From IMG/VR virus record IMGVR_UViG_3300035053_000478, positions 1 through 34,887 of that record: 34,887 nt of DNA; one strand, given 5' to 3'. This DNA comes from a virus (taxonomy: Duplodnaviria > Caudoviricetes). Positions 25,517-33,810 of this stretch are shown in pieces. The position numbers and the translations under genes were made by a program. How positions within the stretch are numbered: the first letter of the stretch is position 1; each line of letters opens with the position of its first letter. The notes under the pieces are model-generated. The model made no database searches. It saw nothing but the letters and a program-made list of their open reading frames with translations, and was not told the DNA's origin.

Positions 25517-25911
25517 AGCGGTTCATAATCGATAAGTATCTCGGTATTCCCTACCGTCATAGAGGACGCACGATGGACGGTTTGGATTGTTGGGGCTTCT
25601 TGAAATTGGTTTATGCGGATCTGGGTTTCACACTGTTTGATATTGAGGACTTGCAGTACAGCAAGGTCTGGGGGCTTAAAGGAAGGGATTATTTTAAAGA
25701 GAATTATGCAAACGACTGGATAAGGGTTGATGATCCCGAACCGCTTGACGGCATTCTTTTTGTTAATTCACGAGGGATCGCCAATCATGCGGGTGTGGTT
25801 TTAGAGAACAGGCGGTTTATTCACTGTTGCCGTCAGGGTGTGATCGTATCACGGCTTGATGATGTTTCTTGGAAGCAGAAAACAGAAGGGTTTTACAGGT
25901 TAAAGAAATGA
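25420..25911 (+). CDS. NlpC/P60 tail tip peptidase (gpK-like)
   Basis: YLGIPY...GLDCWG, NHAGV, FIHC; AGGAGG RBS before ATG 25420 inside the gpL gene. Confidence 0.88.
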   Translation: MQQDKTALQTTRELQPVRGVSVCTDNTNLRDVERFIIDKYLGIPYRHRGRTMDGLDCWGFLKLVYADLGFTLFDIEDLQYSKVWGLKGRDYFKENYANDWIRVDDPEPLDGILFVNSRGIANHAGVVLENRRFIHCCRQGVIVSRLDDVSWKQKTEGFYRLKK

Positions 25912-28900
25912 TCAAGGTTAGAAAAATAGACAATCCGTTTCAGACCGATCAGGCAGAGATTAAAGACTTTGCTTTTTCAAGAAGCAAGACACTGCGTGAT
26001 TATCTGAACGAATCGGGTTTTGATTACGCTGACCGGCGTGTCATTGTTACCGGCAAGACGGTTGATGATCTGGACGTGCGTCTTGATGAGGGTGATGAGG
26101 TTACGGTTATTCCTGAAGTCGAAGCTCCGGTTGTGGCGGTTGTTTCAGCGATTGTTTCAGCGGTCTGGGCGTATGCGGTGGCGCATCCGTTCTTGTTCAC
26201 CTTCTTTGTGTTATCCATGGCGTATTCGATTTATCAGTATATGAATCAGCCGAAGATGCCGGACTTCAATTTAGGATCAAGCGGTATGGATGAAGGATCG
26301 CCGACCTACGGCTGGGATGGTGTGCAGACCATTCAGGAAGTAGGCGTGCCGGTTGCGCTTGTGTACGGAGAACACAGAGTCGGCGGGAATATTATCAATC
26401 AGTTTTTATGGGAGGATGGAGACAATCATTATCTCAATGTTTTGCTGGCAATTTGTGAAGGTGAAATAGAGTCGATCAGCGACATTGAGGTCAACAGCAA
26501 TCCGATCAATAATTTTGATGGTGTTTCAGTTGTGGAACGTTACGGCACGAACAATCAGGATTTAATTTCAAATTTTGAGGATCTGCACAATGTCTATCCG
26601 GTCAATGCCACACTCACGAAAAATAATTCCTATGTTTATACTACGGTTGATTCTGATGTGGAAGCCTTTGAGATTCACTTGCGCTGTAATAACGGACTGT
26701 ACCAGCAGAATTCAAGTTCAGGCGATATTCAGAGCTGGAGTGTTTCTTACAGGGTTGAGTATAAACTGCACTCAGAGGGAACGTATACAGATTTAGGCGT
26801 TACCAATATTTCGGCAAAGTCACGCTCAGTTGTGCGCCGTGTTTACCGCAAGGCGGGTCTCACACCGGGGCAGTATGATATTCGCATTACCCGCACAAGT
26901 GATGACAGTTCACTTGACCCGCTAAAGCAGGGCGATCTTTCACTTTTTCAGATCGATGAGATCAAGACGGATGATTTGAGTTATCCGAATACCGCTCTTT
27001 TGGGGTTACAGCTTCTTGCGACCGATCAGCTTTCAGGATCGATGCCGAACATTACCGCAGTCGTTAAAGGTAAAAAGGTTCTGGTTCCGGATGTGCGTAA
27101 TGCGGGAGTGCCGGTTAACTGGGAAGATTATTACTGGGATGGAAGTGATTACCGCTTGCTTGCCGATGACACCTTGCTTACATGGAACGGAACAATCTAT
27201 ACGGAAAAGTATTCGGCGAATCCTGTCTGGTGTTTGCGGGACTTGATAGTCAATGAGCGTTTTGGATTAGGTGAGTATATTTCAACGCAGAATCTGGATA
27301 CGGCTTCGCTTCTTGAGATGTCACGTTATTGTGAGGAGAAGGTGCCGGACGGTCAGGGAGGGTTTGAGAAACGGTTCAGGCTGGATGTGGTTATTGATAG
27401 CAATAACAAGGCTCTGGATATTCTCATTCAGTTATGTGCCACATTTAACGCCATGCCGGTTTATAGCGGTGGCGGGATATCTTTTAAGATCGATAAACCT
27501 TCAACACCGACTCAGCTTTTCGGTATGGGCAATATTATCAAGGACAGTTTCGCTCAGAGCTGGAAAACGCTCAAGGAAGTTCCGAATGTTATTGAGGTGC
27601 AGTTTACTGATAAAGAAAAAAACTACCGTCAGGAGACGATTGCCTACATAGATGAAGAAGCGTTGGCTTCAGGAGAGCCGATGCGAAAGAGTCAGGTCAG
27701 GCTTTTTACGACCCGGGTTAGTTATGCAATCCGTGCGGCTCGATATGCGCTTAAAGTCGCACGCTACATTAACCGTTCGGTTAATTTTAAAGCGGGTATT
27801 GATGCCGTTGCCTGTCAGGCTGGCGATATTATTTCCCTTTCGCATGATGTTCCCCAGTGGGGTTTTTCGGGACGGGTTCAGGAGAACAGCACAAACACGC
27901 TTATAAAACTTGACCGTGAAATGGTGATAGAGGACGGCAAGTCATACAAGATACAGGTTCGTTCTTCTGATGATTCTATAGAGGAGAGATTGATCACGTC
28001 ACCGACAGGAAATCATACAGAAGTTGAGTGTGTGGCGTTTACTTATGCACCGCAGGCGTTTGATGTTTACGCTATCGGTGAGACAAGCAAGGTTAAGAAA
28101 GACTTCCGTGTTGTATCGGTTCAGCGTGAAGGCAAGAATGAAGTGCAGATATCGGCTCTTGAGTATAGCGAAGCGGTTTATGATGATTCAGAGATCACTG
28201 TTCCGCAGAATAATTATTCTTCTCTTTCCGCAGAAATTCCTCAGGTCACGAATTTGAATGTTACCGAGTCGCTGGTCAAGAAAACAGACGGCACTATTGA
28301 AAATGCCATTGATGTCTGGTTTGACCGGCCGGGCTATGCGGATTCCTATGTGAAGGCGTTTGCCCGGGCAAAAGTGTATTTGAGCGATGACGGCGGTTTA
28401 AGCTGGCGAGCCAGAGGAGAGACTTCGGGTTCGAGTTTCAGGATTATAGGAGACATTATTGACGGCATGACCTATCAGGTTAAAGTCACTTCCCTTTCAG
28501 ATATCGGTCAGGAAAGCCCTCTTTCATCTGCGCCATCAAGCGAGATCACGGTTGTCGGTAAATCTGCGCCACCGAGCGATGTGCCAACCTTTCTGGTTAA
28601 TCAGGACAGGGACAGGCTTTATTTTGGATGGAGCGAAATCGATGATGTTGATGTCTGGGGATATGAAATACGCTGGGGTGCGGACTGGGAAAGCGGTCAG
28701 GTTGTGACCTTTCAACAGGGAACACATTATCTCACAACGAATTTCAGGACAGGTGTCGGGCAGAGTTATTGGATCAAGGCGATTGATACTTCCGGTAATT
28801 ATTCAGAAACCGCAAAGGGAGCGGTTATCACGATCACGGAGATACCGTTCAGGAATATTGTTTCTGAATTTGTGGATCATCCGTCATGGCCGGGAACAAG

Positions 28901-29525
28901 AGAGAATATCGATATTGATGGCAACAATCTGGTGATCGAGGATGGTTATCTGTCAGGCAAATACTCAACACCGATCAGGGACTTCGGTTTTCTGGCAACA
29001 GTGTATATCGGCATTGATGTGGTCACCACGCTTTATACAGGGCGAAAGTTTAATGATGACAGCGTGACCCGATTTGATTCGAGTGATTCGCTTCGCTTTT
29101 CAGGAATTGAAAGCCCGGGCGTTGCCACGTTTGAGATTCGCACGTCTGAAGACAACATAACGTGGACGGAGTGGACAGGCTATCAGGCGGGCGATTATCT
29201 GTGCCGGTATTTTCAGATTCGAATGACATTAACCCGTCAGAATGTCAGTGACAGCGTGAGCTGTACATCGCTCAATTACCACGGTGATTTGCCGGATATT
29301 GATGAGTACGGAGCGAACACGGTTGACGTTGCCGTTGATGGCAAGCAGGTATTGTTTGCCAAAACATTTCACGAAGAACCGATTGTTAATGTTTCGATTG
29401 CTTCAGGGAACGGTATTTATTCAAGGTTTATGGATAAGAATGAAACAGGGTTTACGGTCAAATTATATGACGGTTCAGGCGTTGAGCAGACCGGCGACTT
29501 CGACTGGCAGGCTCACGGAATTTAG
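25908..29525 (+). CDS. Host-specificity / central tail tip protein (gpJ-like) with N-terminal gpI-like domain
   Basis: N-terminal ubiquitin-like LDEGDEVTVIP; PVALVYGEHRVGGN, ICEGEI, YPNTA, NPVW; FN3-like modules (YWIKAIDTSGNYS). Confidence 0.9.
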   Translation: MIKVRKIDNPFQTDQAEIKDFAFSRSKTLRDYLNESGFDYADRRVIVTGKTVDDLDVRLDEGDEVTVIPEVEAPVVAVVSAIVSAVWAYAVAHPFLFTFFVLSMAYSIYQYMNQPKMPDFNLGSSGMDEGSPTYGWDGVQTIQEVGVPVALVYGEHRVGGNIINQFLWEDGDNHYLNVLLAICEGEIESISDIEVNSNPINNFDGVSVVERYGTNNQDLISNFEDLHNVYPVNATLTKNNSYVYTTVDSDVEAFEIHLRCNNGLYQQNSSSGDIQSWSVSYRVEYKLHSEGTYTDLGVTNISAKSRSVVRRVYRKAGLTPGQYDIRITRTSDDSSLDPLKQGDLSLFQIDEIKTDDLSYPNTALLGLQLLATDQLSGSMPNITAVVKGKKVLVPDVRNAGVPVNWEDYYWDGSDYRLLADDTLLTWNGTIYTEKYSANPVWCLRDLIVNERFGLGEYISTQNLDTASLLEMSRYCEEKVPDGQGGFEKRFRLDVVIDSNNKALDILIQLCATFNAMPVYSGGGISFKIDKPSTPTQLFGMGNIIKDSFAQSWKTLKEVPNVIEVQFTDKEKNYRQETIAYIDEEALASGEPMRKSQVRLFTTRVSYAIRAARYALKVARYINRSVNFKAGIDAVACQAGDIISLSHDVPQWGFSGRVQENSTNTLIKLDREMVIEDGKSYKIQVRSSDDSIEERLITSPTGNHTEVECVAFTYAPQAFDVYAIGETSKVKKDFRVVSVQREGKNEVQISALEYSEAVYDDSEITVPQNNYSSLSAEIPQVTNLNVTESLVKKTDGTIENAIDVWFDRPGYADSYVKAFARAKVYLSDDGGLSWRARGETSGSSFRIIGDIIDGMTYQVKVTSLSDIGQESPLSSAPSSEITVVGKSAPPSDVPTFLVNQDRDRLYFGWSEIDDVDVWGYEIRWGADWESGQVVTFQQGTHYLTTNFRTGVGQSYWIKAIDTSGNYSETAKGAVITITEIPFRNIVSEFVDHPSWPGTRENIDIDGNNLVIEDGYLSGKYSTPIRDFGFLATVYIGIDVVTTLYTGRKFNDDSVTRFDSSDSLRFSGIESPGVATFEIRTSEDNITWTEWTGYQAGDYLCRYFQIRMTLTRQNVSDSVSCTSLNYHGDLPDIDEYGANTVDVAVDGKQVLFAKTFHEEPIVNVSIASGNGIYSRFMDKNETGFTVKLYDGSGVEQTGDFDWQAHGI

Positions 29526-29536
29526 GAGGTAGATTT

Positions 29537-29752
29537 ATGGCAAAAACAGTTATTCCGCAAAAAGTTGTTATCGAGTTCGATCAGGGCAGTTTTTCAAGCG
29601 GAACGATTCTTTACAAAATAAATGATGACGGTGTGATCAGTAAAACACGCAGTATCGGGATTAAAAATGCGGGATTCAGCAAGGCAACGCTTAACGGTGT
29701 TTTGCAGAAAGTCATCAGTCATGTTTACAGATCGGAGGGTATCGATGAGTAA
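29537..29752 (+). CDS. Hypothetical protein
   Basis: AGGAGGT RBS; 71 aa. Confidence 0.75.
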   Translation: MAKTVIPQKVVIEFDQGSFSSGTILYKINDDGVISKTRSIGIKNAGFSKATLNGVLQKVISHVYRSEGIDE

Positions 29753-30020
29753 ATTAATCTGTCACAGATGTAAACGTCCGATTGCGGATGATATGGCATA
29801 CATTGCCGTGCGTGGAGATATCATTCTTCGCATGCCGGGCAAAAAGCCCATGGTCTTTTCGTGTGTTGAGCAGGCGCACAATTATGCGCAAAAATTATTC
29901 CTTCATGATGTCTGCTGGATAGACATGCTCAAGGAACACGGCATTGAGCTGTACGATATGGACAGGGTTGCTGAGGCGTATAGAAAGAAGGAGGTAGGCG
30001 ATGGCTTGGGACAAGACTAA
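29745..30020 (+). CDS. Small putative Zn-binding protein
   Basis: CHRC...HDVC; GGAGGG RBS before ATG 29745. Confidence 0.65.
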   Translation: MSKLICHRCKRPIADDMAYIAVRGDIILRMPGKKPMVFSCVEQAHNYAQKLFLHDVCWIDMLKEHGIELYDMDRVAEAYRKKEVGDGLGQD

Positions 30021-30768
30021 ACCCGAAAACGATATGCTGTTGATCAACTTCCCCGCCGCTTGCCGTGCAAACTGGGACGCTCTCGAACTTGGCACGGATC
30101 CGAATTTACAGATCACAAACGACAAGGTTGCGCCTAATGCCGGGATTGAGGACAGCAAGCTGGCACAGATCACTTCTGCCAATAAGGTTTCGGGGTCAGC
30201 GTTGGTCGGTCTTGCCAGTGTTCCTCAAGCGGCCGGGGTGCTTCCTGCGGATAATTCGCCTAATAAGCTCAAGGCGGATGTCAGCGACACAACGCCAGAG
30301 TATCTGGACGGTTTGATCGATACGGCAGTGTTTCAGGTTTCAGCCGGTGATCAGCTTCAGCTAAAAGATGGAGGGGTTGAAACAGAAAAACTCGAAGGCG
30401 GTTCAGAATCACCGGGCAATACAAAGTATTACGGAACCAATGATGTGGGTTCAAAAGGTTTTTTTGATATGCCGAATCCCGACCTTACTGGCTATGCCAA
30501 CGGTCTGGATGTAAACGGCAATAATATTCGATTAAAAAATGGAGCAACCGTGCTTGCCACAATCACAGCGCCTTATGCCACGAATGCGGGTACGGCATCG
30601 AACGCCTCTAATTCAAGTCTGCTTAACAGTCAGGGGCCTACCTATTACCGGTGTAGTGGGTGTTCGTGGACATGTTTGAGCAGTTGCACCGGTTCATGCA
30701 ATAGCGGATGTACCGGAACGTGTCAGGGCGGATGCGGTGGCAGTTGTGACGGTTGTGATATGGGTTAG
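30001..30768 (+). CDS. Tail-fibre-like protein with C-terminal CXXX-repeat (putative radical SAM substrate)
   Basis: Position after gpJ; fibre-like segments ITNDKVAPNAGIEDSKLAQI and ATNAGTASNASNSSLLNSQGPTYY; ends CSGCSWTCLSSCTGSCNSGCTGTCQGGCGGSCDGCDMG. Confidence 0.75.
   Translation: MAWDKTKPENDMLLINFPAACRANWDALELGTDPNLQITNDKVAPNAGIEDSKLAQITSANKVSGSALVGLASVPQAAGVLPADNSPNKLKADVSDTTPEYLDGLIDTAVFQVSAGDQLQLKDGGVETEKLEGGSESPGNTKYYGTNDVGSKGFFDMPNPDLTGYANGLDVNGNNIRLKNGATVLATITAPYATNAGTASNASNSSLLNSQGPTYYRCSGCSWTCLSSCTGSCNSGCTGTCQGGCGGSCDGCDMG
30652..30765 (+). repeat. Cys-rich CXXX repeat (10 Cys in 38 aa)
   Basis: Cys2 to Cys9 are spaced exactly four residues apart, flanked by CxxC at each end; intervening residues mostly G/S/T/N/D. 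Confidence 0.95.
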
Positions 30769-30775
30769 GAGGTAG

Positions 30776-31567
30776 ATGATGGATTTTTTAGAAGAAGCCT
30801 GTAATTATCCGATAGTTACCCGCTACCGGCAGAATTTGGAATATATCAAAAACGGTCTGGTTAAAGGTGCGGTATCGCTTAAAGCGAAAGATATTTTTAT
30901 TCCCCACCTTTACGAGAAATATATCAGGGGGCATGAGAATGAAGATGTTATCCATTGCGGTAAAGGTCAGTTTATGGATTGTCTTGATCCATATTATTTG
31001 TTTGTTGATCAGTTCTTTTTGCAGGACAGGGTTCTTGAGTACATAAGTCTTGAGAAGTTGCGGGAACCTCTTACCGGCAAGAAGGTCTGGTGTAAAACTG
31101 CAGGATCGTATCAGGAGATGATGACACGTCATCCAAATTATTACGCTGTCATGGATGACGATACCGTTCCGGATGACGGCGGTCGGAGAGCGGGTGAATT
31201 CAAGCCGGTTGACAATCAGGAGGAGTCGCTTCTGGCTCTGGTCGCCTTTCATTACAAATACGCTTTTGATGATGAGCAGGATAAGTTCGTTAAACTTCCG
31301 GTCGCAGAGCAGAAACAAAATCTTCTTAAACCGTGGATGGAATACGAGGTCAACCGGGAGGCGGGCAACAATGCTTCCCGCATAGCTGATTACGGACGGC
31401 TTATCCGGTTCTTGCTTTCTAAAGTTACGCTCAGCGATGAGGAACAGGCGATATTTTCTGACGTGCTTGCAAAGCCGGTTGAGATGGAAGATATCGACAG
31501 GATTATCAAACGTGAGAAGAAAATTCTCTCAAAGATCAAAGCGTATAAGGAAGGAACGCTGTTATGA
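30776..31567 (+). CDS. Hypothetical protein between Cys-rich fibre and radical SAM genes
   Basis: AGGAGGT RBS overlapping the fibre stop; ATGA overlap with the next gene; no motif recognised. Confidence 0.8.
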   Translation: MMDFLEEACNYPIVTRYRQNLEYIKNGLVKGAVSLKAKDIFIPHLYEKYIRGHENEDVIHCGKGQFMDCLDPYYLFVDQFFLQDRVLEYISLEKLREPLTGKKVWCKTAGSYQEMMTRHPNYYAVMDDDTVPDDGGRRAGEFKPVDNQEESLLALVAFHYKYAFDDEQDKFVKLPVAEQKQNLLKPWMEYEVNREAGNNASRIADYGRLIRFLLSKVTLSDEEQAIFSDVLAKPVEMEDIDRIIKREKKILSKIKAYKEGTLL

Positions 31568-32445
31568 AGGAGTTGAGACTCACAATGGAGGTTACCAAAG
31601 ACTGCAACTTAAACTGTCCGCACTGTATTAAGAAAGACGGCAACCTTATGCCTTATCCACAGGACGATCAGTTTGATGAGGATAAAGCGATAGCATTTTT
31701 TGAGAAACATAACATTGCCCGGGTGCTTATCAGTGGAGGTGAACCGTTAACCAAAAAAGACAGGGTTAAGCGTCTGATCAGGCGGATCGGTACGGGCAAG
31801 GTTTTGTTTGCGACGAACGGATTATTGCTGGATGAGGATATGGTCTGGTTTTTAAACCGGTACAAAGTGATCGTGATGATTTCAGCTATTGCCGCAAAGA
31901 AGTGTGATGCTGGACTTGTAAAGAAAATCAATCGCAGACTTATTAAATATGTCATCCAACCGCAGGAGGAGTTCGGTCAGCGTGCGGTAGAGCTGGGGCA
32001 GATGTTTGACTGTAAGGTTGAGCTTACATTTGATGTTTCCAAAGTGAAGGAGCTGGATGGCAGTGCGCTGGATGTATTTGAGCGAAATTTAAAGATCAGC
32101 CGACCGTATATCCGTATTGCGACCAAAACCGGCGAATGCAACAGATGTCAGTTTAATCTGGAATGGCGGTGTGATAACAGTCTCATCAGTTACCGGCAGG
32201 TGTACGGCGTAAAAACAAAGATTCCCGAAGGGTGCGCATTTTACTATCAAAATCTTGGAGAAGAACTGTTCAGCCGTTTTCTTGCTCTGGCTAAAGAATA
32301 CAACCGTCCGTGCCTTAAGGACGTGAAAGATATTTTTCAGATCAACAAAGACCTTGCCGGTGGCGGGCTGATTGTTTCCCCTGTCTGCGCTTCAGAGGAC
32401 GCACTGTTTGTCTGGAGCAAACTTCTGGAGGTCTACAATGCGTGA
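31564..32445 (+). CDS. Radical SAM protein (short, Cys-containing C-terminus)
   Basis: CNLNCPHC (CxxxCxxC), ISGGEPL, ATNGLLL; later CNRC...C...C...C...C. Confidence 0.9.
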   Translation: MKELRLTMEVTKDCNLNCPHCIKKDGNLMPYPQDDQFDEDKAIAFFEKHNIARVLISGGEPLTKKDRVKRLIRRIGTGKVLFATNGLLLDEDMVWFLNRYKVIVMISAIAAKKCDAGLVKKINRRLIKYVIQPQEEFGQRAVELGQMFDCKVELTFDVSKVKELDGSALDVFERNLKISRPYIRIATKTGECNRCQFNLEWRCDNSLISYRQVYGVKTKIPEGCAFYYQNLGEELFSRFLALAKEYNRPCLKDVKDIFQINKDLAGGGLIVSPVCASEDALFVWSKLLEVYNA

Positions 32446-33574
32446 TGTTTTCAGTATACAGGTTTTGACAAATCTTTCATGCAATCTGGCGTGTGATTAT
32501 TGCTATGAGAAAAAATACAACCGGGTTAATGATGCGGATACGGTTAAGCGGTTTATGAATTATATGTTTGATAAACACGCAGAGAAAAGTGTTTGTGAAC
32601 TTGAGTTTATCGGTGGAGAGAGTTTTCTGTGTGTTGACCTTCTGGATGAGCTGACCGATTACGCCCGTACGTTTGGCAAAAAGATGTTTGTTTCGTTAAC
32701 GACAAACGGCACGTTGCTCGGTAAGAAAACCGTCAGGGATTATATCGAAAAGAACAAAGATGTTCTGAGGGTAGGCGTTTCCATAGACGGCGTTCAGGAA
32801 CTGCACGACACGTATCGCAAGCATAAGAATGGCAAAGGATCGTATAGCGACATTGTTCCCCATATTGATTTTTTATTCAAGGCGCTTGGTAGAGATCAGG
32901 TCGGAGTTAAGGCGACATTTACAAAAGAAACGTTTCAAAAATATTATTACCGTTCAATTCTTCACCTTATCGGTTTGGGGTTCAAGGACATTTCAGGAAA
33001 TATCATGTATGAGGAGAATGTGGATGCTGTTTTCGGACTTACTGTTGCCCGGGAGTTTATGCGTCTGGCGGATTATTTTCTGGAATCGGATCTTTATAAA
33101 ACAGTCAAATTGCGACAGCTCAATCCGGATGTTGATTTTATCCGGCAGTACAACAGCAGGCTTTTTAAGATGAAGAGTGACGAGCGTAATTATTGCGGTT
33201 CGTGCAACGAGATGACATGTATCGGTTTCGATGGTCTGGCGTATGGATGCAACCGTTTTTGCACGATGGGCAAAGAAGATATGCATATCGGCAAGATGGA
33301 AGGCGATCGTTTTGTGCCGGTCAATTCGCAGTTAAAAGCGGAGGTGATGTATCAGTATAAACGCCGTCCGCAGGAGTGTCAGGAATGCGTGCTTAACATG
33401 GAATGCCCGGCATGCGTGGCTATTCCTTACGAGTATGGCAATCCTCAGGAGTTTGTTGATTCAAAGGGCATGTGCGGGTGGACGCACGGTGTTGCGCTTG
33501 CACGGTTTTATATGTGTACAAAACTGTTTCAGAAGGAGTCGGCATGTCAGCCACGGCTATTGCAGACGCAGTAA
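32438..33574 (+). CDS. Radical SAM/SPASM peptide maturase (CXXX-repeat target family-like)
   Basis: CNLACDYC, EFIGGE, TTNGTL, SIDG..ELHD.YR...GKGSY; SPASM NYCGSC...YGCNRF...CQEC....ECPAC...MCGW. GGAGG RBS before ATG 32438. Confidence 0.92.
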   Translation: MRDVFSIQVLTNLSCNLACDYCYEKKYNRVNDADTVKRFMNYMFDKHAEKSVCELEFIGGESFLCVDLLDELTDYARTFGKKMFVSLTTNGTLLGKKTVRDYIEKNKDVLRVGVSIDGVQELHDTYRKHKNGKGSYSDIVPHIDFLFKALGRDQVGVKATFTKETFQKYYYRSILHLIGLGFKDISGNIMYEENVDAVFGLTVAREFMRLADYFLESDLYKTVKLRQLNPDVDFIRQYNSRLFKMKSDERNYCGSCNEMTCIGFDGLAYGCNRFCTMGKEDMHIGKMEGDRFVPVNSQLKAEVMYQYKRRPQECQECVLNMECPACVAIPYEYGNPQEFVDSKGMCGWTHGVALARFYMCTKLFQKESACQPRLLQTQ

Positions 33575-33810
33575 AAGAAGTATTCAGGTTTTTGCGTGAA
33601 TGGAATAACGCTGATCAAAAGCAGAAGCGGTATGCGCTTAAGCGGATAAAGCGTATCAAGAAAGCGACAGACCTTGCGGAGGATATTTTCTTTGTCGTTG
33701 AGGATATGCTTAAGATTGCGCACGCTCAGGGCTTGGCGGATCAGCGGGAATTCACACGGCTGGAAGCCCGGTATAAAAAAATGGTTCAGAAATTTAACGA
33801 TTTAGATTAG
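33544..33810 (+). CDS. Hypothetical helical protein
   Basis: AAGGAG RBS before ATG 33544. Confidence 0.7.
   Translation: MSATAIADAVKEVFRFLREWNNADQKQKRYALKRIKRIKKATDLAEDIFFVVEDMLKIAHAQGLADQREFTRLEARYKKMVQKFNDLD

Follow-up and report, generated by a model that had tools for sequence, protein, structure and literature searches.

Why would a tailed phage place two radical S-adenosylmethionine (rSAM) enzyme genes behind a tail gene whose product ends in a regular ladder of cysteines? The question is raised by a stretch of 34,887 nucleotides (IMG/VR record IMGVR_UViG_3300035053_000478, positions 1 to 34,887; hereafter the window), a lambda-like prophage with integrase, terminase, portal, capsid, tape measure, gpM/L/K-like and TipJ genes, whose relatives reside in Ca. 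Omnitrophota genomes. Behind TipJ follow, in order, open reading frames (ORFs) of 71 and 91 aa, a 255-aa ladder protein, a 263-aa accessory protein and the two enzymes, rSAM-1 and rSAM-2. Since the same kit is found at the fibre ends of unrelated phages, it is likely that these enzymes introduce cross-links into the tip of a fibre on the virus particle. We consider it probable that the fibre tip receives some form of rSAM modification, and on balance we favour the more specific prediction, drawn from sequence comparison, that the ladder is retained on the tip and stapled by thioethers inside the cell by the adjacent enzymes. Support for this prediction comes from gene order, translational coupling, conservation of the ladder, enzyme motifs, the co-variation of tip type with rSAM genes, and ladder-fibre fusions elsewhere.

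The ladder protein is encoded on the plus strand at 30001-30768 and its C-terminus has the form CxxC-(CxxxC)7-CxxC, with cysteines at residues 218, 221, 225, 229, 233, 237, 241, 245, 249 and 252 (spacing 3,4,4,4,4,4,4,4,3). These ten lie within the last 38 residues, and the protein has one further cysteine, at residue 21. The ladder itself (aa 218-252; 30652..30768, plus strand), the putative rSAM substrate, matches phrog_6085 (E 7e-6) and is the only run in the six frames of the window with at least five cysteines at exact four-residue spacing. Comparison of its 38 codons with those of the ortholog at locus L004 identified 15 identical, 16 synonymous and 7 non-synonymous codons; because synonymous changes outnumber non-synonymous ones and all ten cysteines are retained, the ladder is taken to be under selection. 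Directly before the first ladder cysteine lies a junction motif, N-x-x-x-L-x-G/S-x5-Y-x (30610..30651, plus strand), that is conserved in 29 aligned ladder proteins and may represent a leader or recognition segment. In 431 CxxxC repeats from 29 proteins, a small residue (G, S, T, N or A) stands before the next cysteine in 96% of cases.

Is this protein a fibre? We consider it likely to be a short side tail fibre, as its gene lies in the distal tail module behind TipJ and its N-terminal anchor is conserved while the C-terminal tips are exchangeable. The anchor and shaft (aa 1-156; 30001..30468, plus strand) are kept across the phage family, with residues 1-90 showing 58% identity to the N-terminus of a triple-LamG protein and residues 102-155 showing 65% identity to a segment that precedes a weak Collar match. 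A single-sequence model of the 255-aa protein was unusable (pLDDT 30), and the structural-atlas neighbours, which are viral and include several fibre or spike clusters, all have TM <0.5. A preliminary description of this locus had placed the gene in the fibre position after gpJ; it does belong to the distal tail module, although it does not follow gpJ directly, as the 71- and 91-aa ORFs intervene.

The same description had reported a ten-cysteine CXXX repeat at the end of the protein and three coupled genes behind it, including an rSAM and an rSAM/SPASM gene, and all of this holds. The fibre gene stop codon (TAG, 30766-68) sits within TAGGAGG, ahead of the accessory start codon at 30776; accessory and rSAM-1 meet in an ATGA at 31564-67; and rSAM-1 and rSAM-2 overlap by ATGCGTGA at 32438-45. 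The GC content of the cassette (0.44-0.46) is near the window mean of 0.46. An assembly artefact as the source of the cassette was rejected on the basis of the relatives' loci and of a contig from another run (X8), which covers 30000-33387 with 3 differences from the window.

If the enzymes serve the fibre tip, tips and enzymes should travel together, and the relatives of the anchor indicate that they do. Residues 1-156 have relatives at 66 loci, 48 of them viral and 18 in genomes (mostly Ca. Omnitrophota, including two prophages of Ca. Velamenicoccus archaeovorus), with 73-87% identity in most. Type A loci (the window, L003 and L004) have a fused ladder, the accessory and two rSAMs. Type B loci combine a short anchor with a 241-aa protein containing 17 cysteines, a 135-aa protein and three rSAMs, and type C loci carry a 191-aa protein with alternating cysteines at its end, an rSAM/SPASM and a B12-binding rSAM. 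Types D and E have conventional-looking tips with five or fewer cysteines and no rSAM. Twenty loci end too early to be scored; 40 of the 46 scorable ones combine a Cys-rich tip with at least one rSAM, the other 6 have a conventional tip and no rSAM within at least 2 kb, and none is discordant (0/46). As the 46 loci come from related phages, this count stands for about five independent module types rather than for 46 events. In a quick tree, the type B and C enzymes fall on long branches outside the clade of the window enzyme, and thus unrelated tip-plus-enzyme kits share one slot. Chance coupling of the fibre gene to enzymes that are an unrelated moron is largely refuted by these findings and very improbable: morons are common in tail-distal regions, yet there are no discordant loci, start and stop codons overlap, and the cassette recurs across lambda-like, P2-like, T4-like, podovirus-like and jumbo phages. 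As a separate observation, Ca. Velamenicoccus archaeovorus carries in one genome two prophages of this family (L059 and L066) with different cassettes, namely type B with three rSAMs and type C with an rSAM/SPASM and a B12-binding rSAM. A similar 183-187-aa protein follows each of them, and the copy in L059 matches an Lcl C-terminal domain.

What kind of enzymes are these? Both pass the Pfam Radical_SAM cut-off. rSAM-1 (293 aa; 31564..32445, plus strand) matches PF04055 with 39.5 bits, has CxxxCxxC at residues 14-21 and a GGEP motif, lacks a full SPASM domain, and carries two C-terminal cysteines (Cys195 and Cys224) that are invariant in the alignment. rSAM-2 (378 aa; 32438..33574, plus strand) is an rSAM/SPASM maturase with eight conserved SPASM cysteines, its SPASM assignment coming from alignment to CteB, as Pfam SPASM gave no match; like ranthipeptide and sactipeptide maturases, it joins a CxxxCxxC rSAM domain to SPASM cysteines. 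Neither enzyme has room for a RiPP (ribosomally synthesised and post-translationally modified peptide) recognition element (RRE) before its rSAM motif (Cys15, Cys14). The best family match of rSAM-2 is the PapB model (157 bits, cut-off 340), followed by TIGR04115 (148.4 bits, cut-off 350), and TIGR04463 scores 56.5 bits. The closest solved structure is CteB (5WGG, E 2.9e-21, residues 13-333), with which six SPASM cysteines align, and a seventh, C346, is invariant in the rSAM-2 alignment.

A quick tree of 40 rows, with approximate likelihood-ratio (SH-aLRT) support and no bootstrap, places rSAM-2 in a clade of 25 rows (SH-aLRT 100), apart from a 10-row clade of the TIGR04115 type (SH-aLRT 99). 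Relatives in the window clade score 126-157 bits against TIGR04115, whereas five phage enzymes of the other clade score 386-580 and pass its cut-off. The window clade comprises 75 loci in 28 clusters, and a ladder adjoins the enzyme in 25 of these (23 found by script and 2 by reading), the other 3 being contigs of 1.3-2.4 kb. Likewise, among the best 80 of 294 enzyme relatives, every distinct enzyme listed has a ladder nearby save three at contig ends. The accessory profile matches in 19 of the 28 clusters and a second rSAM is present in 21, in one case fused. Ladder length and type vary with the phage, from 10 to 31 cysteines. In 9 clusters, the ladder terminates a protein with at least 200 preceding residues in a tail module, which is the synteny of fibre, CXXX repeat and rSAM genes that the preliminary description had proposed to look for. 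Another 9 clusters are SPN3US-like jumbo phages with short ladder proteins (the upstream context being cut in two), and 2 podovirus-like clusters have a ladder ORF of 58-69 aa directly after a fibre gene. Two of the remaining clusters are cut, one (L209) is cellular-looking and two (L193 and L195) have free peptides and no tail genes. A DNA pattern for CSWTC ladders gave 37 matches, 9 of which were true ladder ORFs; the other 28, out-of-frame or low-complexity, were dropped. A further phage locus (L165:2151-5836) presents a third variant, in which two short ladder proteins accompany an rSAM/SPASM from outside both clades, a second rSAM and a weakly matching accessory homolog.

Three loci illustrate how the ladder is built into tails. 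In L112 the order is baseplate J, P2 gpI, a PF12571 tail fibre (E 1.8e-40) ending in a ladder, accessory, rSAM/SPASM, rSAM and sheath. In a prophage of Desulfoluna butyratoxydans (L070), TipJ is followed by a PF12789-repeat protein with the same junction motif and a ladder, then by the accessory and three rSAMs; downstream of this cassette, at L070:15517-16059, a thrombospondin type 1 domain protein is encoded (PF19030, E 4e-12). In L204 (1963-3996), an rSAM-1-like domain is fused ahead of rSAM-2 in a 677-aa ORF that is preceded by TipJ, a 536-aa ladder fibre and the accessory, and this fusion is a handy single-chain enzyme for biochemistry. Taken together, comparative genomics strongly supports the earlier suggestion that the neighbouring rSAM enzymes act on a fibre-type protein.

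The SPN3US-like jumbo phages carry the ladders, the accessory and both enzymes immediately behind the tail genes gp168 and gp167. In SPN3US itself (JN641803 / NC_027402; L050, L122) two ladder ORFs on the minus strand, at 143413-143817 and 143828-144220, are without GenBank annotation, gp166 is called in another frame, and gp164 is annotated without its CxxxCxxC N-terminus. The leaders of these two ladder proteins are predicted to yield tryptic peptides of an ordinary kind. Table S2 of PMC7411985 lists gp167-gp170 as virion tail proteins, while wild-type virions gave 0 spectra for gp164 and gp165, which were represented by a few spectra in certain mutant preparations. The masses of gp164 and gp165 agree with rSAM-1 and the accessory, respectively, and their absence from wild-type virions along with some spectra in mutants fits intracellular maturation factors. 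SPN3US tail fibres are associated with flagella in PMC7411985, and gp168-170 are given as baseplate or fibre candidates in PMC5694885.

What does the accessory protein do? It is encoded at 30776..31567 on the plus strand, matches phrog_8030 (E 1.5e-23) and is likely an intracellular maturation factor, a non-virion helper. Its model is of high quality (pLDDT 92.5), and its sole structural match is a homolog in Erwinia phage Asesino that shares the fold (TM 0.78). No PDB entry matched at E 0.001, the best Z being 5.4 to generic helical hairpins, and the Atlas clusters were unnamed. These fold searches were dominated by the C-terminal helices, so an RRE-like part could have been masked. Similarly, no Pfam chaperone family was matched, and weak BFVD matches to tail-fibre assembly (E 0.19-0.93) were left out of account. 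Fifty-three relatives were found at E <=0.001 among 1.84 billion representatives; their alignment offered no conserved stretch usable for a locus search. When genomes were searched with the accessory profile, the phylum of Desulfoluna yielded one match in 401, the one already known, and that of Velamenicoccus none in 401, which does not establish absence. Predicted complexes of the accessory with both enzymes and with the ladder segment scored 0.00 in two runs and were used neither way.

A tentative order of events can be proposed for the stapling of the tip. The anchor would attach to the tail tip in the way of the conventional fibres found in its place in sister phages. rSAM-2, a relative of CteB and PapB, would abstract hydrogen from a small residue beside a cysteine to give thioethers from Cys sulfur to carbon. 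rSAM-1 and rSAM-2 may operate as one unit, since they are fused in one phage (L204), and the accessory could either substitute for the missing RRE or chaperone the unfolded ladder. The stapled ladder, retained on the virion, would then provide a rigid tip for host attachment, resistant to reduction and proteases, that would need no disulfides in the cytoplasm.

Several observations weigh against a thioether-stapled tip retained on the virion, and some of them favour other explanations. The 255-aa protein matches no Pfam or NCBIfam family, TIGR04114 included, and the label of tail fibre therefore rests on position and relatives. No ladder protein is among the SPN3US_016x rows of the virion table of PMC7411985; the ladder ORFs are unannotated but some starts were re-annotated by its authors, so that these ORFs may or may not have been in the database searched. 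Neither the jumbo phages nor the two podovirus-like loci have a fusion, their ladder being encoded by a small ORF of its own. L193 (1580-3200) and L195 (5305-7840) encode two or three short free CXXX peptides and have neither the 263-aa accessory nor tail genes, and in L195 the neighbours are a ThiF-family gene on the upstream side and NAMPT and NadM-Nudix genes on the downstream side; loci of this type are probably stand-alone RiPP clusters. Finally, on a cellular-looking 502-kb contig, L209:808-1731 (also L191) encodes a protein with a twin-arginine translocation (Tat)-like signal, the junction motif, a ladder and a C-terminal Hint domain, followed downstream by rSAM-1, accessory, rSAM/SPASM and a convergent TatC gene. 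This arrangement suggests an exported, self-trimmed, enzyme-modified surface protein. Homologs of the enzymes apart from Cys-rich fibres, which the preliminary description had taken as an observation that would speak against its proposal, thus exist in part, beside free peptides outside any tail module in L193 and L195 and on the cellular-looking contig of L209.

These free peptides lie in the same enzyme clade, and with the leader-core layout of the stand-alone jumbo-phage ladders (127-142 aa) they are what might be expected if the ladder were a RiPP core that is freed, by cleavage or otherwise, to act as a diffusible toxin, signal or metal binder, with the fibre part only a carrier or leader. 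However, family searches recognised no protease, transporter or immunity gene in the window cassette, in L112 the one position available for a tail fibre, between gpI and the sheath gene, is taken by the ladder protein, and sister phages swap the whole cassette for conventional receptor-binding tips. We therefore regard a released peptide as improbable. Alternatively, the ladder might be an assembly aid, a covalent trimerisation or folding clamp that is removed or takes no part in receptor binding. It is located at the C-terminus, where fibre chaperone domains are typically found, its low-complexity S/G/T side chains give little binding specificity, and types B and C have a separate Lcl-domain protein after the enzymes, a possible adhesin. 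But ladder length and type differ widely by phage within the clade, and no Lcl-type gene follows the cassette in the window, which makes a clamp a quite improbable explanation.

The chemistry of a retained tip is a further point of doubt. The eighth SPASM cysteine of rSAM-2, C261, occupies the position of an Ala in CteB, as judged from the alignment, and it could fill the AuxI site, which in CrpC is proposed to stay vacant for the substrate thiol. An equivalent of C261 is present in 27 of 28 clusters, yet one search pattern demanded it; of the 14 clusters recovered independently of this requirement, 13 have it. The ladder also has no acidic residues as acceptors, and lacks the Asp, Glu or Gln acceptors of PapB and CrpC. 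The eighth cysteine, the second enzyme and the missing acidic acceptors argue against a simple CteB-like reaction. They would be compatible with a tip modified otherwise than by thioethers, such as a metal-sulfur or Fe-S loaded rod, epimerisation, or cysteine oxidation of the anSME/MftC kind, as would the second, divergent rSAM that is present in 21 of 28 clusters and the Tat-like signal of L209, Tat being a route for folded or cofactor-loaded proteins. Set against this, the top family and structure matches (the PapB model and CteB) are thioether-forming maturases, and every cysteine is flanked by small residues; we consider such other chemistry rather unlikely. Eight cysteines are called the canonical SPASM motif in PMC13692751, and the cysteine count alone therefore leaves the chemistry unfixed.

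The genes around the cassette add some context. Upstream, tail tip protein J is encoded at 25908..29525 on the plus strand (NF040662, 151.6 bits against a cut-off of 140; phrog_31, E 4e-167). The 71-aa ORF between gpJ and the fibre gene (29537..29752, plus strand) and the 91-aa ORF that overlaps the start of the fibre gene (29745..30020, plus strand) have no family match. ORFs similar to them occur in relatives with every tip type, and counterparts of the two lie upstream in 8 relatives inspected, although the second is not listed for L066 and L064. The 91-aa ORF has a CxxC at its N-terminus, plus a later Cys and His. At the other end, contigs of two runs attach different upstream DNA at ~33571 to an 88-aa gene (33544-33810), which indicates the right-hand edge of a swappable cassette. 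Promoter and terminator predictions in the window gave counts no different from chance, and no RNA data set was listed as containing the sequence.

Peptides and a few proteins of cells are known to be cross-linked by radical SAM enzymes. The literature searched, which excluded most subscription journals and bioRxiv supplements, yielded no account of a virion protein modified by an rSAM enzyme, and the main text of a jumbo-phage review (PMC13282480) does not contain the term 'radical SAM'. If the fibre tip is indeed stapled, host recognition in these phages would hinge on an oxygen-sensitive enzyme step, the two unexplained 'radical SAM' genes of SPN3US-like jumbo phages would gain a function, and the long-orphan CXXX-repeat targets a biological role. 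As tools, the enzymes would be candidates for stapling proteins at several sites. SPN3US is a cultured, genetically tractable phage in which the proposal is directly testable. More broadly, we lean towards the view that phages of several morphotypes and host phyla would build part of their adsorption apparatus in the manner of RiPPs. A two-enzyme rSAM unit and a helper of new fold would staple a tip ladder, whole cassettes of unrelated chemistry would be swapped at one slot like receptor-binding domains, and the same kit would have been adopted for a Tat-exported cell-surface protein.

How, then, does the window cassette compare with known systems? The preliminary description had associated it with the CXXX-repeat system of TIGR04114 targets and TIGR04115 maturases, which it resembles in having a cysteine at every fourth residue with small spacers (seven CxxxC steps between two CxxC in the window) and a maturase without an N-terminal RRE. 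Membership did not hold up, and filing rSAM-2 under TIGR04115 was rejected because it scores 148 bits against a cut-off of 350 and belongs to a separate clade. The window protein has no match to TIGR04114 (cut-off 20 bits), its relatives score 17-20.7 bits with one passing, and the 263-, 71-, 91-, 88- and 81-aa ORFs of the window gave no TIGR04116 match. The window cassette also differs in its extra SPASM cysteine, second rSAM, 263-aa accessory and leader motif. True TIGR04115 members are likewise found in phages next to ladders; the family is defined by models, and no functional paper on it was found in the literature searched.

Among characterized maturases, CteB, which acts on the SCIFF ranthipeptide CteA, is the closest solved structure, with six SPASM cysteines aligned, and PapB, the partner of PapA, provides the top family match. 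Unlike these two, rSAM-2 scores below the PapB and TIGR04115 cut-offs, has no RRE and carries Cys261 in place of the CteB Ala; and where CteA and PapA are short peptides, the predicted substrate here is 255 aa long and bears a G/S/T ladder. PapA peptides carry CX3D motifs and PapB uses Asp/Glu/Gln-type acceptors; PapB-type CX3D chemistry was rejected for the window, as the ladder has no acidic acceptors. On the side of the tail, fibre genes with Tfa chaperones form modules in P2 (gpH/gpG) and Mu. The ladder protein and accessory of L112 hold the positions of the fibre and chaperone genes, and tips are swapped behind an anchor as in these modules, with the differences that the accessory matched no Pfam chaperone and that dedicated rSAM enzymes are present.

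A precedent at the scale of whole proteins comes from PMC13692751, in which CrpC installs ranthionine links in CrpA and QhpD in QhpC, and in which CrpC of Methanococcus voltae staples the Cys-rich C-terminal repeats of the protein CrpA; phages are not mentioned in its main text. As described there, CrpC differs from the window enzyme in being cellular and in having an RRE, seven SPASM cysteines and a C-X-X-Q/D motif. As in CrpC/CrpA and QhpD/QhpC, the window cassette is predicted to use an rSAM/SPASM enzyme that acts on the Cys-rich C-terminus of a protein rather than on a peptide. Judged by these comparisons, the window system would work like those of ranthipeptides, QhpD and CrpC, with TIGR04115 as a sister family to which it does not belong.

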